Below, one piece after another: positions 3,176 to 62,917 of a stretch of DNA of 64,000 nt. The translations under genes were made by a program, and so were the position numbers. The notes beneath the pieces were generated by a model, which saw only the letters and a list, made by a program, of their open reading frames with translations, was not told the DNA's origin and did no database searches. Numbering within the stretch: the first letter of the stretch is position 1; every line of letters starts with the position of its first letter. Origin of the DNA: Somniosus microcephalus (Eukaryota); contig CM126203.1 of assembly GCA_052327205.1 (NCBI GenBank), positions 100,750,001 to 100,814,000 of the forward strand, given 5' to 3'.

Positions 3176-3824
3176 ACATAAGTAAGAGCAGGAGTAGGCC
3201 ATACGGTCCCTCGAGCCTGCTCCGCCATTCAATAAGAACATGGCTGATCATCGACCTCAACTCCACTTTCCCACCCGATCTCCATATCCCTTGATTCCCC
3301 TAGAGTCCAAAAATCTATGTATCTCAGCCTTGAATATACTCAAAGACTCAGCATTCACAGCCCTCTGGGGTAGAGAATTCCAAAGATTCACAACCCTCTG
3401 AGTGAAGAAATTCCTCCTCATCTCAGTCTTAAATTGTCTACCCCTTATCCTGAGACTATGCTCCCTAGTTCTAGACACGCTAGCCAGGGGAAACAACCTC
3501 TCAGCATCTACCCTGTCAATCCCCTTCAGAATCTTGTATGTTTCAATGAGATCACCTCTCATTCTTCTAAACTCCAGAGAGTATAGGCCCATTCTACACA
3601 ATCTCTCATCATAGGACAGCCCTCTCATCCCAGGAATCAATCTAGTGAACCTTCGTTGCACCGCCTCCAAGGCAAGTATATCCTTCCTTAGATAAGGAGA
3701 CCAAAACTGTGCACAGTACTCCAGGTGTGATCTCACCAAGGCCCTGTACAATTGTAGCAAGACTTCCTTACTCTTATACTCCAACCCCCTTGCAATAAAG
3801 GTCAACATGCCATTTGCCTTCCTT
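3176..3824 (-). mobile_element. CR1 LINE 3' fragment
   Basis: ORF 3257-3808 encodes the CR1 ORF2 C-terminus (LEYCAQFWSPYLRKDI, RRMRGDLIETYKI, FFTQRVVNLWNSLP) followed by the 3' UTR. Confidence 0.92.
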
Positions 3825-18320: not shown

Positions 18321-19429
18321 ACGCCATCAGTAGCTCCTAAACATAGCTAGGGATATTGAATTATAAGGATTGCAACAAATCAGCCGTTTCAAATAATTCT
18401 TAGTAAATGGCCTTTCGTACCTTAAATTAAGTATGTGTTTTTTTTTAAGGTTATACTTTTTTTTGTTTGTTTAGTACAACTTTATCAAAGTCCGCCTTTA
18501 AAATCAGAGAACCCTCTGGAATTGCCCCACAGCAGTCAGTCTGTGCCTTTTCAGCGTGGGCTCAAGGCTCCGCCGGCTGTCGTCAGCTGGAAACATTCAG
18601 CCTCGCATCCTGCAGCAACAACGTGGCTTGAAGAGGTTTGTTTTAGCAAAATATTAAATGAAACAAGTTGGTGAAAAGGAGACGAGACAAATCTATGGCT
18701 GAGTCCGTATGTTTGGCGCAACTACAAGGCGGCTGGAAAGTAAAGCCCGCCGGCCTGTCCATGGCCACGGACAAGCCCACAGAAAGAGCGGTGTCGCGGC
18801 CAGGGTCTGAACACACCAGCCCGCCCGAGAAGGAAACGGGAAAGAGCTCCGTTCGAAGATTAGTAATGTTTGACCTAGATTGAAACTACCGCCGCTCGTC
18901 ACCCAGTTACAGCAGCATAAAATCTTTCAATGTACAATGTTCGAACCTCCAAAAGTTCTGTCTTAAACTTTATTTTGAAGTACCATTTTTATATACCCAC
19001 CAATTCATTATCAGGGCTCGGTGTCAAACACGAATCTCAATTTTAATGTCATATGTGCAGGCATGTACTTCCAAAAATGATTTCATTCCAATTTTTCGGA
19101 ATGCACTGGATATTCACGGAAACAAATGTAAACTGCAAACCCGTCCAAAGTAGATAGATGTATCCATTTGATTTTTGAAGTCTATGTACAGAGATATGAA
19201 AATGCATTTCCAAAAGTAGACAATCCCAGTTTGAAAATTCAGTTCGTTTCGTTTCGTTTCTATTTGTGGCCGCACTCACAAAATGTATGTTTTTAAAAAT
19301 CAACATTTAGCATAGCTATTAAGATCGCTCTCAATAGATCGCAAATTCTTCAATTTATTTTGCTATACGTGCAAAATAATAAACATTGGTATAAAAGATT
19401 GGATATAAAGGAGTAAATTAAACCCGCTC

Positions 19430-19700
19430 CAGCCTGCCCGCCCGAGCTCCCTGCTCAGTCCCAGCCCGCCCGAGCTCCCTGCTCAGCCCCAGCCCGCCCG
19501 AGCTCCCTGCTCAGCCCCAGCCCGCCCGAGCTCCCTGCTCAGCCCCAGCCCGCCCGCCCGAGCTCCCTGCTCAGCCCCAGCCCGCCCGCCCGAGCTCCCT
19601 GCTCAGCCCCAGCCCGCCCGCCCGAGCTCCCTGCTCAGTCCCCGCCCGCCCGAGCTCCCTGCTCAGCCCCAGCCCGCCCGCGCCCCCTGCCCTGCCCAGC
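19430..19700. repeat. GC-rich minisatellite, 8 copies of a 28/32-bp unit
   Basis: Core GAGCTCCCTGCTCAG starts at 19444, 19472, 19500, 19528, 19560, 19592, 19624 and 19652 (spacings 28,28,28,32,32,32,28). Units differ by one CCCG. Confidence 0.97.
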
Positions 19701-19749
19701 CTCAGTGTGCAAGATGTGGCAGACACGGCAAGAGTTGCTTTTTTTTTAA

Positions 19750-19930
19750 CCCGCTGTATCCAATCTCCGTCCCCACCGCGCCCATTGGTCAGAGTCTTGA
19801 CAGCTCGCCGCGAATTGGTCGACTTCAGCAGCACGTGCGCGTCGGGTTCGGCCTCCCGGCGTTCAGAGCGCATGCTCAGCTTGGCAGGGACCATTCATAA
19901 ACTAAACTCTTACACACTTCCTGAGCGTGG
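19750..19930 (+). promoter_or_regulatory. probable MAB21L2 core promoter (CpG-rich)
   Basis: CCAAT at 19760-19764, reverse CCAAT (ATTGG) at 19784-19788 and 19814-19818, E-box CACGTG at 19832-19837, an NRF1-like GCGCATGC near 19868 and TATA-like CATAAA at 19896-19901. It lies about 400 bp upstream of the ATG. Confidence 0.6.
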
Positions 19931-19972
19931 GGAAAAGTGGTCACAGGAATAAAAACAGTCAAAATCAGGGGC

Positions 19973-19992
19973 AGAGAGAGAGAGAGAGAGAG
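19973..19992 (+). repeat. (AG)n microsatellite in the putative 5' UTR
   Basis: About 10 AG units, read directly. Confidence 0.9.
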
Positions 19993-19994
19993 CA

Positions 19995-20096
19995 ATGAAA
20001 GATAACAGCCAAACTTCGTCACTTACATTTAATGCTTCAAAACAGCGACAATCGCCACTGCTTAAAACAATTCATTTTGAAGAAACAAGTTGTTGA
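19995..20096 (+). other. putative upstream ORF, 33 aa (MKDNSQTSSLTFNASKQRQSPLLKTIHFEETSC)
   Basis: ATG at 19995 (gcaATGa) to TGA at 20094-20096. It is a uORF only if transcription starts near 19920-19930. Confidence 0.35.
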
Positions 20097-20286
20097 TTTT
20101 GGAGGACTTAGTTGACATTTGTATTTTGACTTCCTCACTTCTCTCTCCCCTCTATCACATTAAATTCAATGCACTTGTTTCAGGTTTGTACCAGTTAAAA
20201 AGTGGGTGCCCACGGAACACCAGTAAGCATTGGATCCCTCAACCTATTGCGAGACTCCGGTGTACAGCCCGGACCTGAGTCCCAAC

Positions 20287-21366
20287 ATGATCGCGGCTCA
20301 AGCCAAGCTGGTCTACCAGCTGAACAAGTACTACAACGAGCGATGCCAGGCTAGGAAAGCCGCGATCGCTAAGACCATTCGAGAGGTGTGCAAGGTGGTC
20401 TCCGATGTCCTTAAAGAAGTGGAAGTCCAAGAGCCTCGCTTCATCAGCTCTCTTAGCGAGATCGAAACGCGCTTCGAAGGGTTGGAGGTGATCGCTCCAA
20501 CAGAATTTGAGGTGGTCCTCTACCTGAACCAAATGGGGGTCTTCAACTTCGTGGACGATGGCTCGCTGCCTGGCTGCGCTGTGCTAAAACTAAGCGACGG
20601 GCGCAAGAGGAGCATGTCCCTTTGGGTCGAGTTCATTACAGCTTCGGGCTACCTGTCAGCCCGGAAGATCCGTTCCAGATTTCAGACCCTGGTGGCACAG
20701 GCAGTGGACAAATGCAGTTATCGAGATGTGGTGAAGATGGTGGCGGACACGAGCGAGGTAAAGCTAAGGATCAGGGAGCGTTACGTGGTGCAGATCACGC
20801 CAGCTTTCAAATGTACAGGCATCTGGCCCAGGAGTGCGGCTCAGTGGCCCATGCCACACATCCCCTGGCCCGGGCCGAACCGGGTGGCCGAAGTCAAGGC
20901 TGAAGGCTTCAACCTCCTGTCTAAAGAGTGCTATTCCCTGACAGGCAAGCAGAGCTCGGCCGAGAGCGACGCTTGGGTTTTACAGTTCGGCGAAGCGGAG
21001 AACCGGCTACTTATGGGGGGCTGCAGGAAAAAGTGCCTATCCGTTTTAAAGACTTTGCGCGATCGACACCTCGAATTGCCAGGGCAGCCCCTCAATAACT
21101 ACCATATGAAGACACTACTACTCTACGAATGCGAGAAACACCCCAGAGAAACCGACTGGGACGAGTCATGCCTCGGCGACCGCCTCAACGGCATTCTGCT
21201 CCAGCTCATCTCCTGTCTCCAGTGCCGGAGGTGTCCTCATTACTTTCTTCCAAACCTAGATCTTTTTCAAGGAAAGCCTCATTCCGCTCTGGAAAGCGCG
21301 GCTAAACAGACATGGCGATTGGCGAGAGAAATTCTTACCAATGCAAAAAGCCTCGATAAGCTATAG
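20287..21366 (+). CDS. MAB21L2: Protein mab-21-like 2 (cGAS/Mab-21 nucleotidyltransferase-fold developmental regulator), single coding exon, 359 aa
   Basis: The ORF runs MIAAQAKLVYQLNKYY...KSLDKL, 1080 nt from ATG 20287 (aacATGa). Residues match L2 rather than L1: YQLNK, SLSEI, RERY, AQWPMP, CYSLTG, QFGEAENRLL, LLLYE, RETDW, LESAA, SLDKL. It is nested antisense in LRBA. The ORF-track start at 20230 is a TTG. Confidence 0.97.
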   Translation: MIAAQAKLVYQLNKYYNERCQARKAAIAKTIREVCKVVSDVLKEVEVQEPRFISSLSEIETRFEGLEVIAPTEFEVVLYLNQMGVFNFVDDGSLPGCAVLKLSDGRKRSMSLWVEFITASGYLSARKIRSRFQTLVAQAVDKCSYRDVVKMVADTSEVKLRIRERYVVQITPAFKCTGIWPRSAAQWPMPHIPWPGPNRVAEVKAEGFNLLSKECYSLTGKQSSAESDAWVLQFGEAENRLLMGGCRKKCLSVLKTLRDRHLELPGQPLNNYHMKTLLLYECEKHPRETDWDESCLGDRLNGILLQLISCLQCRRCPHYFLPNLDLFQGKPHSALESAAKQTWRLAREILTNAKSLDKL

Positions 21367-42214: not shown

Positions 42215-44364
42215 TATTAGTTCATGGGATGTGGATGTCGCTGGCAAGGCCATGGTGAGCCGCCTTCTTGAACCACTGCAGTCTGTGAGGTGAAGGTACT
42301 CCCAATGCTGTTAGGGAGGGAGTTCCAGGATTTTGACCCAGCAATGATGAAGGAACGGCGATATATTTCCAAGTCAGGACGGTGTGTAACTTGGAGGGGA
42401 ACCTGGGAGGTTCCCATGCACCTGCTGCCCTTGTCCTTCTAGATGGTAGAGATCACAGATTTGGGAGGTGCTGTTGAAGAAGCCTTGGCGAGTTGCTGCA
42501 ATGCATCTTATAGATGGTGCACACTGCAGACACGGTGTGCCCGTGGTAGAGGGAGTGAATGTTTAAGCTGGTGGATGGGGTGCCAATCAAGTGGGCTGCT
42601 TTGTCCTGGATGGTGTTGAGCTTCTTGAATGTTGTTGGAGCTGCACTTATCTGGGCAAGTGGAGATTATTCCATCACACTCCTGACTTGTGCCTTGTAGA
42701 TGGTGGAAAGGCTTTGGGGGTCGGGAGAATACTGCAGAATACCCAGCCTCTAACCTGCTCTTGTAGCCACAGTATTTATGTGGCTGGTCCAGTTAAGTTT
42801 CTGGTCAATGGCGACCCCCCCAGGATGTTGATGGTGGGGATTTGGCAATTGTAATGCCGTTGAATGTCAAGGGGCGGTGTTAGACTCTCTCTTGTTGGAG
42901 ATAGTCATTGACTGGCACTTGTGTGGCACAAATGTTACTTGCCACTTATCAGCCCAAGCCTGAATGTTGTCCAGGTTTTGCTGCATGCGGGCATGGACTG
43001 CTTCATTACCTGAGGAGTTGCGAATGGAACTGAACATTGTGCAATCATCAGCGAACATGCCCACTTCTGACCCTATGATGGAGGGAATGTCATTGATGAA
43101 ACAGCTGAAGATGGTTGGGCCAAGGACACTGCCATGAGGAACCCCTGCAGTGATGTCCTGGGGCCGTGATGATTGGCCTCCAACAACCACAACCATCTTC
43201 CTTTGTGCTAGGTATGACTCCAGCCAGTGGAGCATTTCCCCCGATTCTCATTTACTTCAATTTTACTAGTGCTCCTTGATGCCACATTTGGTCAAATGCT
43301 GCCATGATGTCAAGGGCAGTCACTCTGACCTCACCTTTGGAATTCAGCTCTTTTGTCCATGTTTGGATTAAGGCTGCAATGTGGTGTGGCGCTGAGTGGC
43401 CCTGGCGGATCCCAAATTGAGCATCGGTTAGCAGTAAGTGCCACTTGATAGCACTGTTGATGACACTTTCCATCACTTTGCTGATGATTGAGAGTAGACT
43501 GATGGGGCGGTAATTGGCCAGATTAGATTTGTCCTGCTTTTCATGGACAGGATATACCTGGGCAATTTTCCACATTGTCAGATAGATGCTAGTGTTGTAG
43601 CTGTACTGGAACAGCTTGGCTACAGGCATGCTTAGTTCTAGAGCACAAATTTTCAGCACGACAGCCGGGATGTTGTCGGGGCCCATAGCCTTTGCTGTAT
43701 CCCGTACACTCAACCATTTTGTGATATCACGTGGTGTGAAACGATTTGGATGCAGATGGTGGGGACCTCAGGAGGAGGCCGAGATAGGTAATCCACTCAG
43801 TACTTCTGGCTGAAGACGGTTGCGAATGCTTTAGCTTTGTCTTTTGCACTCACGTGCTGGGCTCCGTCATCATTGAAGATGGGGATGTTAATGGAGCCTC
43901 CTCCTCCCATTAGTTGTTTAATTGTCCACCACCATTCATGACTGGATGTGGCAGGACTGCAGAGCTTTGATCTGATAGGTTGGTTGTGGGATCACTTAGC
44001 TCTGTCTATAGCATGCTGTTTCCACTGTTTAGCATGTATGCAGTCCTGTGTTGTAGCTTCACCAGGTTGGCACTTAATTTTTTAGGTACACCTGAGGCTG
44101 GTCCTGGCATGCAGTAGTGGTGCTACCGAGCCACTCTGGGTGATGGACATTGAAGTCCCCCACCCAGAGTACATTCTGTGCCCTTGCTACCCTCAATGCT
44201 TCTTCCAAGTGGTGTTCAACATGGAGGAGTACTGATTCATCAGCTGAGGGAGGGTGGTAGGTGGTAATCAGCTGGAGGTTTCCTTGCACATGTTTGACCT
44301 GATGCCATGAGACTTCATGGGGTCCGGATTCAATGTTAAAGACTCACGAGGCCACTCCCTCCAG
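42215..44364 (-). mobile_element. CR1/L2-group LINE remnant with APE endonuclease and RT pieces, heavily deleted
   Basis: APE motifs TTYHPP and VGDFNVHH; RT motifs KAMGPDNIP, NYRPISLLS, ALDIMAAFDQMW, GVPHGSVLGP and MFADD. It is a different family from the main CR1 copies. Confidence 0.88.
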
Positions 44365-60791: not shown

Positions 60792-62917
60792 TAACAGCAA
60801 CTTATATTTATATAGCGCCTTTAACGTAATAAAACGCCCCAAGGCGCTTCACAGGAGTGTTATAAAAAAAACACAAAATGAGAGTGAGCCATATAAGGAG
60901 ATGTTAGGACAGATGACCAAAAGCTTGGTCGAAGAGATAGGGTTTAAGGAGCGTCTTAAAAGGAGGAAAGAGAAGTGGAGAGACTTAGGTCGGGAATTCC
61001 AGAGCTTAGGACCTAGGCAGCTGAAGGCATGACCGCCAATGGTGGTGCAATTAAAATCGGGGATGTTCAAAAGGCCAGAATAGGCGGAGCACAGAGGTCT
61101 AGGGGGATTATAGGGCTGGAAGAGATTACAGAGATAAGGAGGAGCGACGCCATGGAAGGATTTGAAAACAAGGATGAGAATTTTAAAATTGAGGCATTGC
61201 TTAACTGGGAGCCACTGTAGGTCAGCAAGCACAGGGGAGGTGGTGAGCAGGACTTGGTGCGAGTTAGTACACGGGCGGCAGAGTTTTGGATGACCTCAAG
61301 TTTATGGAGGGTAAAACTTGGGAGGCTGGCCAGGAGTGCATTGGAATAGTCAAGTCTAGAGGTGAAAAAGGCATGGATGAGAGTTTCAGCAGCAGATAAG
61401 TTGAGCTAAGAGTGGAGATGGGCGATATTACGAAGGTGGAAATGGGCAGTCTTAGTGATAAAACGGATATAAGGTAGGGAGCTCAATTTGTGATCAAATA
61501 TGACACCAAGGTTGCGAACAGACTTGGTCAGCCTGAGACAGTTGTCAGGGAGAGAGATCGAATCAGTGGAAAGGGAATGGAGTTTGTGGCGTGAGCCGAA
61601 GACAATGGCTTCGGTCTTCCCAATATTTAATTGGAGGAAATTTCTACTTATGCAGTGCTGGATGTCGGACGAGCAGTCTGATAGTATAGAGGCGGTGGAG
61701 GGTTCAAGAGAGGTGGAGGAGAGGTAAGTAGAGCTGGGTATCATCAATGTACAATGAAAACTCACATTGTGTTGCCGGATGATACCACCGAGGGGGGAGC
61801 ATGTAGATGAGAAATAGGAGGGGGCCAAGGATAGATCCTTGGGGGATACCAGAGGTGACAGTGCAGGATTAGGAAGAGAAGCCATTGCAGGTGATTCTAT
61901 GGTTACGTCTGGAAAGATGGGAATGAAACCAGGCGAGTGCCGTCCCATCCAGCTGGGTAACGGTGGAGAGGCGTTGGAGCAGGATTTTGTGGTCAACCGT
62001 GTCAAAGGCTGCAGGCAGGCCCAGAAGGATGAGAAGGGATAGATTATCTGTGTCATAGTCAATTAGGATGTCATTTGCGACCTTGGTAAGAGCAGTTTCG
62101 GTACTGTGGCAACGGCGGAAGCCTGATTGGACGGATTCAAACATGGAGTTCTGGGAAAGATGGGCACAGATTTGGGAGGCGACAACATGTTCAAGAACGT
62201 TAGAGAGAAAAAGGAGGTTGCAGATGGGGCAATAGTTTGCAAGGACGGAGGGGTCAAGGGTTGTTTTTTTTGAGAGGGGTGATGACAGCAGATTTGAAGG
62301 AAAGGGGGACAATACCAGAGGAGAGAACCTTTAACAATATCCGTTAACATGGGAGCCAGGAAGGAAAGTTGGGTTGTCAGCAATTTAGCAGAAATAGGGT
62401 CGAGAGAGCAGGAGGTCAGTCTCATTGACAAGATGAGCTTTGAAAGGGCAAGGGGGGAAACAGGAGAGAAATTAGAGAAATATGCAAATTTAGGGTTAGG
62501 GCAGGGGGAAAACGGAGAGGAAGTAAGGTCCGGTGGGCTAGGGGAAGGGAGGGAATTGAAAGCAGAAGCATTGGATGGATGTTGTTAATCTTTTTAACAA
62601 ATAAGTCCATGAGCTCCTCACATTTATTGTTCGAGGTGAGGGAGGAGGAGGCAGGGGAGGGTGGTTTGAGAAGATGGTAAGTGGTGAAGAGAAGCCTGGT
62701 GTTATTTTTGCCATTCTGAATGACCTTAGAATAGTGGGCGGTTTTAGTGATGGAGTGCAGGACCCGGTAAAGCTTTATATGTTCTAGCCAAATCTGGTGA
62801 TGGATGGTTAGATCAGTTGTCTGCCAAAGACATTCAAGTCTGCGTCTCTTGGACTTAAGGGAGCGGGGATGAGGGGTATACCAGTGGAACGACTAGGGTG
62901 AGAGAGTGTAATGATTT
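60792..62917 (-). mobile_element. L2 LINE, 5'-truncated about 2.1 kb copy, inserted into a CR1
   Basis: RT motifs (QSGFRRCHSTETAL, AAFDTVDH, NFLQLNIGKTEAIVFG, LQWLPVKQCLNFKIL), tail at 60792, and a flanking TATTA duplication. Confidence 0.9.

Follow-up and report, generated by a model that had tools for sequence, protein, structure and literature searches.

We consider it likely, judging from sequence comparisons, that the 19 codons directly upstream of the annotated AUG of MAB21L2 are a coding-type extension conserved in jawed vertebrates, which gives rise to a minor UUG-initiated form of 378 aa in addition to the main AUG form of 359 aa. The gene was found in the window, that is, the whole stretch of 64,000 nt analysed here. 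The first-pass annotation suggested that the long form, if conserved, would be an unannotated regulatory isoform, but it is not new, because both human genes, MAB21L2 and MAB21L1, are already rows in a table of PMC9789052. The extension is thus a candidate already tabulated for human in 2022, and the present analysis adds deeper evolutionary support and homology between the extensions of the two paralogues.

The MAB21L2 coding sequence of the annotated type (20287..21366, forward strand) is intronless, encodes 359 aa and ends with TAG at 21364-21366. It was recognised from the open reading frame and from relatives that match PDB 5EOG (MAB21L1), a structure that begins at the annotated start and represents the AUG form only. 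The window protein fell inside the MAB21L2 clade (tree support 0.925), with 94–97% identity to L2 proteins and 91–94% to L1. A search of its own genome gave two matches among six candidates, namely the window gene and a paralogue on contig C10 (locus L002) that is 99.7% identical to shark MAB21L1 proteins, as would fit a cartilaginous fish. BEACH-domain exons were found on the strand opposite to MAB21L2, 84–274 kb away on contig C2, and a mirror layout was observed for the paralogue on C10. The position of both genes antisense to BEACH-domain exon clusters, putatively those of LRBA and NBEA, agrees with the Mab21 and Lrba/Nbea nesting cited in PMC11511899.

Inspection of the reading frame ahead of the AUG showed that the extension is limited upstream by an in-frame TAA (codon -21, 20224..20226, forward strand), and that 20 sense codons (20227-20286) lie between this stop and the ATG at 20287. 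The second of them is TTG (codon -19, 20230-20232), a candidate near-cognate start in the context gcaTTGg (20227..20233, forward strand), with G at -3 (20227) and G at +4 (20233). Initiation at this codon would add an N-terminal extension of 19 codons (20230..20286, forward strand) and ∼2.1 kDa, from 40.9 to 43.0 kDa. The translation from the TTG is (L/M)DPSTYCETPVYSPDLSPN, 19 residues with TP, SP and SP motifs and two Tyr. The length of the open frame, the position and context of the TTG, the 19 added residues and the motifs had all been described exactly in the first-pass annotation. The main AUG lies in the context aacATGa, in which the -3 purine is present and the +4 G is absent; the A at -3 is shared by the paralogue. 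Within the window sequence, the interval from the TTG to the main ATG contains no ATG in any frame. The closest ATG further upstream, at 20169, is in another frame and opens an ORF that ends 91 nt short of the main ATG. The stop at -21 makes TTG -19 the sole near-cognate codon ahead of the conserved MAB21L2 peptide, GTG -9 and CTG -4 being located within it. Taken alone, an open stretch of 20 codons that includes a TTG matches the chance expectation.

Several other features of the region were observed. Five upstream ATGs are located less than 600 bases from the main ATG (19714, 19872, 19995, 20032 and 20169; span 19714-20199), all of them closed before the TTG. On the coding strand, both paralogues carry a GA dinucleotide repeat ∼260–310 bases before the AUG (window 19974-19993; L002:2062-2088), and in the window it is immediately followed by the upstream ATG at 19995, which opens 33 codons. 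About 600 bases upstream of the ATG there is a GC-rich tandem array (19429-19681) with a unit of ∼28–32 bp, 8.4 copies and 91% matches. Elsewhere in the window, short ORFs at 3257-3808, 42867-43686, 61406-62425 and other positions have translations that resemble LINE-type reverse transcriptase fragments.

The DNA-level coding test consisted of one paralogue pair, MAB21L2 of the window and MAB21L1 (L002) of the same genome, aligned ungapped from the AUG. It was found that GCA TTG GAT (codons -20 to -18) is identical in both paralogues and that the similarity between them begins exactly at GCA TTG. Over codons -19 to -1, 48 of 57 bases were identical (84%), compared with 80% in the coding sequence, and in 60-nt blocks further upstream the identity was 35% (codons -40 to -21) and 32% (codons -60 to -41). 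By the binomial test at 30% background, the probability of 48/57 identical bases is ∼3e-17. Unlike the bare open frame, the paralogue conservation of the extension is beyond chance. Because the extension is shared by both paralogues, it would predate the L1/L2 split. The 19 codons comprised 12 identical, 4 synonymous and 3 non-synonymous ones. The nine base differences were distributed 2/1/6 over the codon positions, giving a third-position bias of 6/9 (P = 0.042), and this bias, together with the positive published PhyloCSF scores, agrees with the change of synonymous type that had been proposed as a check. Synonymous differences, on the other hand, were fewer than in the coding sequence: 4 were observed among the 15 same-residue codons against 8.3 expected (P = 0.016). 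This low rate indicates that a nucleotide-level constraint also acts on the extension. Codons -14 to -8 (20245..20267, forward strand) form a run that is DNA-identical in both paralogues. A weak hairpin may form at about 20247-20285, and its 5' arm and loop share bases with this run.

With the first 45 residues as query, 24 proteins were retrieved from 26 candidates; 10 of these proteins covered 96–100% of that query at 83–93% identity. Residues ahead of the vertebrate-type start were present in 45 of 360 proteins, and 42 proteins carried at least 19 such residues. In these read-through models, a set selected for intact frames, [LM]DPxxYC was found in 40/42 and the end PD[LIV]CPN in 42/42; the two models without [LM]DPxxYC enter the peptide part-way. 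The set is biased in that orthologues whose frame is broken by a stop or frameshift would yield no read-through model, and two members (P0001 and P0043) resemble L2/L1 chimeras and are not independent. Among 11 distinct variants, 11 of the 18 positions after the start were invariant. The MAB21L2 models came from gecko, arapaima (two copies) and catfish, and those of MAB21L1 from 17 named species including catshark, teleosts, frog, newt, snake, birds and mammals. The conservation in vertebrate MAB21L1/2, which had been put forward tentatively, was thus borne out by the paralogue DNA, the read-through proteins and the tree. Preservation of the frame was likewise observed, within a protein set biased to intact frames: all length changes were in frame, with +1 residue in catfish (P0010 and P0062) and +22 in P0213. 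Both conserved ends of the P0213 extension are retained, DPSAYCE on one side and PDLCPN on the other.

P0213 is a divergent MAB21L1-like protein with a 22-residue His/Pro/Gly-rich in-frame insert between these conserved ends. It was placed on a long branch near MAB21L1 with support of 0.77, and because of the long branch and the weak support it is unusable for dating the extension beyond jawed vertebrates.

Predicted proteins were found that start exactly at -19 (378 aa; P0039 on 322 contigs) or, in MAB21L1, at -27 (386 aa), where the read-through models have Leu. Provided that the gene callers take ATG, GTG and TTG as starts, a start at a Leu position implies TTG. The TTG was seen directly in both genes of the window genome and is tabulated for human MAB21L2; for other species it was deduced from the gene-caller starts. 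An AUG at -19, verified in DNA, was found in no orthologue.

The present analysis adds a second conserved UUG to MAB21L1, as indicated by sequence conservation. In the paralogue L002 there is no stop at -21, and a second in-frame TTG is located at codon -27 in the context aagTTGg (L002:1858-1884, minus strand, codons -28 to -20). The KLAP segment at this region was conserved in read-through models of fish, frog, birds and mammals. In PMC9789052, the table row of human MAB21L1 gives the Ribo-seq prediction "TTG; 991-1072", which is 27 codons upstream.

The three S/T-P motifs of the window peptide were not conserved as a cluster. The first site was present in 10/11 variants, the second in 5/11, and the third in 1/11, the window only. 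A proline-directed phospho-degron tail with three S/T-P sites, as had been supposed, was rejected, for all 10 other variants have Cys at the third site and MAB21L1 has NP at the second. One conserved S/T-P site may still be of this kind. Codon -3 of the window (20278-20280) is AGT (Ser), as against Cys in 42/42 other read-through proteins, and it represents either a lineage-specific change or a sequence error. Of the sequencing runs listed, 20/24 hold part of the stretch, and no RNA run is among them.

The low synonymous rate bears on another reading, that the segment is an untranslated cis-element beside the start codon (an RNA hairpin, an RNA-binding-protein site or a DNA element) and the peptide a by-product. 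The stronger conservation of synonymous sites relative to the coding sequence (4 differences against 8.3 expected, P = 0.016), the identity of codons -14 to -8 in both paralogues and a similar hairpin drawable in both genes would fit this explanation, as would the zero proteomics count for extension peptides in the table of PMC9789052. However, only 1/6 windows beat shuffled sequences in RNA folding, namely that of the paralogue hairpin (z = -3.24), which was picked after the fold had been seen. The z-scores were -1.27 (not significant) for the window hairpin, which was likewise picked afterwards, +0.23 for the whole extension and -0.58 for a 121-nt window, and the Rfam search gave no match at E ≤ 1. 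Moreover, a cis-element accounts neither for the bias towards third positions nor for length changes that all keep the frame (one of them +22 residues), and it leaves unexplained why the boundary falls on a TTG in good context and why the PhyloCSF scores are positive. We therefore regard a cis-element with a by-product peptide as improbable. The cis-element and the translated extension can, nevertheless, both hold together.

Evidence of translation was sought in published human data. In Supplementary Data 1A of PMC9789052 (2022), MAB21L2 and MAB21L1 are already candidates of PhyloSET and RiboSET_ext, the former a set of 60 genes and the latter a relaxed one; both genes are in the top-5000 Ribo-seq set. 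The row of MAB21L2 lists a 20-codon extension, a PhyloCSF score of 291.6 and "TTG; 1052-1109; rank 4331; cov 7.14", and that of MAB21L1 lists 36 codons, a PhyloCSF score of 228.3, rank 1950 and cov 40.9; the PhyloCSF scores were computed over 120 mammals. The proposal that the TTG serves as a candidate start is supported by the Ribo-seq prediction for human MAB21L2, which falls on the same codon -19. Ribo-seq support in these rows was weak, with coverage of 7% for MAB21L2 and 41% for MAB21L1, and the proteomics count was 0 for both genes. MAB21 is unnamed in the main text of PMC9789052, and neither gene is among the reannotated genes listed there. The searched supplements of four other translation or proteomics studies, PMC9943669, PMC5749180 (9 files), PMC11317171 (together with its main text) and PMC12718117, contained no MAB21L1/L2 rows, which may be due to low expression. 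In full-text literature, with most subscription journals outside its scope, nothing was found linking MAB21L2 with non-AUG initiation, and for MAB21L1 only a CAG-repeat paper was found.

Another possibility is that expressing tissues make chiefly the UUG-started long form, in which the annotated Met is mostly an internal residue. The extension is nearly as conserved as the protein body, and many arthropod and mollusc homologues start 6–9 residues upstream at a Met, some of them without a Met at the vertebrate start. Nevertheless, an A occupies position -3 of the AUG in both paralogues, and UUG is generally inefficient as a start codon. The low Ribo-seq coverage of the extension in the tabulated human rows also argues against such a main product. 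According to PMC11511899 and PMC8238893, human MAB21L2 c.1A>C is likely pathogenic or a presumed loss of function; the ClinVar row overlapped with the extension in the PMC9789052 table is this same c.1A>C, at the base right after the extension. A single 41-kDa band was described in PMC545073 for mouse embryo brain extract and for cells expressing a myc fusion. As the myc-tagged protein ran at the same 41-kDa size, a difference of 2 kDa may be unresolved there; the single band points either to a prevailing AUG form or to insufficient resolution. Taken together, the single band and the likely pathogenic c.1A>C speak for a long form that is minor and not exclusive, and we hold a main product started at UUG to be quite improbable.

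It is very improbable that translation of the codons begins at an AUG in an upstream exon joined by splicing to an acceptor just before them: AG dinucleotides occur at 20222-23 and 20226-27, numerous automatic gene models extend into the region from upstream, and a pyrimidine-rich run of the paralogue ends in AG just before codon -27, but a pyrimidine tract is absent before the window AGs, the upstream parts of the gene models have no shared sequence across species, and human principal transcripts carry the extension as a single uninterrupted genomic block of the leader.

For the favoured minor UUG-initiated form, leaky scanning is the most likely route. A fraction of the scanning ribosomes would start at the UUG of codon -19, and most of them would pass on to the AUG with its A at -3. 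The weak hairpin ∼20 nt after the UUG, drawable in both paralogues, might aid the UUG start, which would also explain the low synonymous rate. The conserved features of the tail are D-P, Y-C, one [TS]-P, V-Y, P-D and C-P-N. Tentatively, the tail preceding the spine helix may be a short and largely unstructured motif, D-P-x-x-Y-C-[ED]-[TS]-P-V-Y-x-P-D-L-C-P-N. The AlphaFold2 model from a 49-sequence alignment was poor (mean pLDDT 64.6, pTM 0.43; residues 1-8 and 10-13 below 50), and the packing of the tail on the core cannot be placed from it. The UUG start would turn the N-terminus from Met-Ile to Met-Asp, and these two termini take different acetyltransferase and degradation routes. The change would be likely to tune stability or partner binding and not the fold. 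Our working guess is that the short motif alters N-terminal processing, stability or partner binding.

MAB21L1 and MAB21L2 are highly conserved eye-malformation genes. If the long form exists, variants in the 57–81 bases before the AUG would be missense and not UTR changes, start-loss alleles may be partial in effect, and constructs with an N-terminal tag that begin at the annotated Met would omit a conserved segment. In PMC8238893, MAB21L1 c.-68T>C is given as a non-coding variant of uncertain significance. By its counterpart in L002, c.-68 is the middle base of codon -23 of MAB21L1; this codon is Leu in the sheep and bat models, consistent with the reference T at c.-68. If the UUG at -27 were used in human, c.-68T>C would equal a missense change. 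A wider proposal, which on present comparisons we judge rather unlikely, is that a UUG-gated long proteoform has been kept since before the duplication, with a Cys/Tyr/Pro tail essential in eye and neural development and with MAB21L1 using both UUG -27 and UUG -19. If this were true, the "5' UTR" of both disease genes would be coding, the long form would escape MAB21L2 c.1A>C, and a regulatory segment would be lacking from all structural and cell studies of the 359-aa protein.

Outside vertebrates, the vertebrate motif was absent from the invertebrate-type proteins and loci examined. A metagenome scan, in which 80 loci of 172 relatives were kept (54–83% identical), revealed the motif in 0 of 54 distinct upstream frames and thus yielded no vertebrate DNA. 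Many arthropod and mollusc homologues have a Met-started leader of 6–9 residues ending in Pro/Ser-Asp; such a leader is absent from the amphioxus and hemichordate models examined, and an in-frame stop lies 1–3 codons upstream at some invertebrate loci. The arthropod and mollusc Mab-21 leaders (MLVPPD- and MLLEGSSPD- types) resemble the vertebrate tail as a short Pro/Asp-ending segment ahead of the vertebrate Met position. They are, however, 6–9 residues long, Met-initiated and without DPxxYC, and any homology to the vertebrate tail would be conjectural.

Among known systems, the tNOX-type case is similar in that an in-frame near-cognate start in good context lies upstream of the AUG and shows coding-type conservation, as here. 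In tNOX, non-mammalian orthologues start the extension at AUG, whereas no DNA-verified case of this kind was found here; MAB21 is unnamed in the main text of the paper behind the comparison. The closest counterparts are the human rows of PMC9789052. Human MAB21L2 is the same gene, with a 20-codon open stretch and a TTG at codon -19 as in the window, and the TTG predicted 27 codons upstream in human MAB21L1 corresponds to the second TTG of the paralogue in the window genome. The evidence in those table rows is mammalian only, whereas the present comparison extends to a cartilaginous fish and to the homology of both paralogue extensions.
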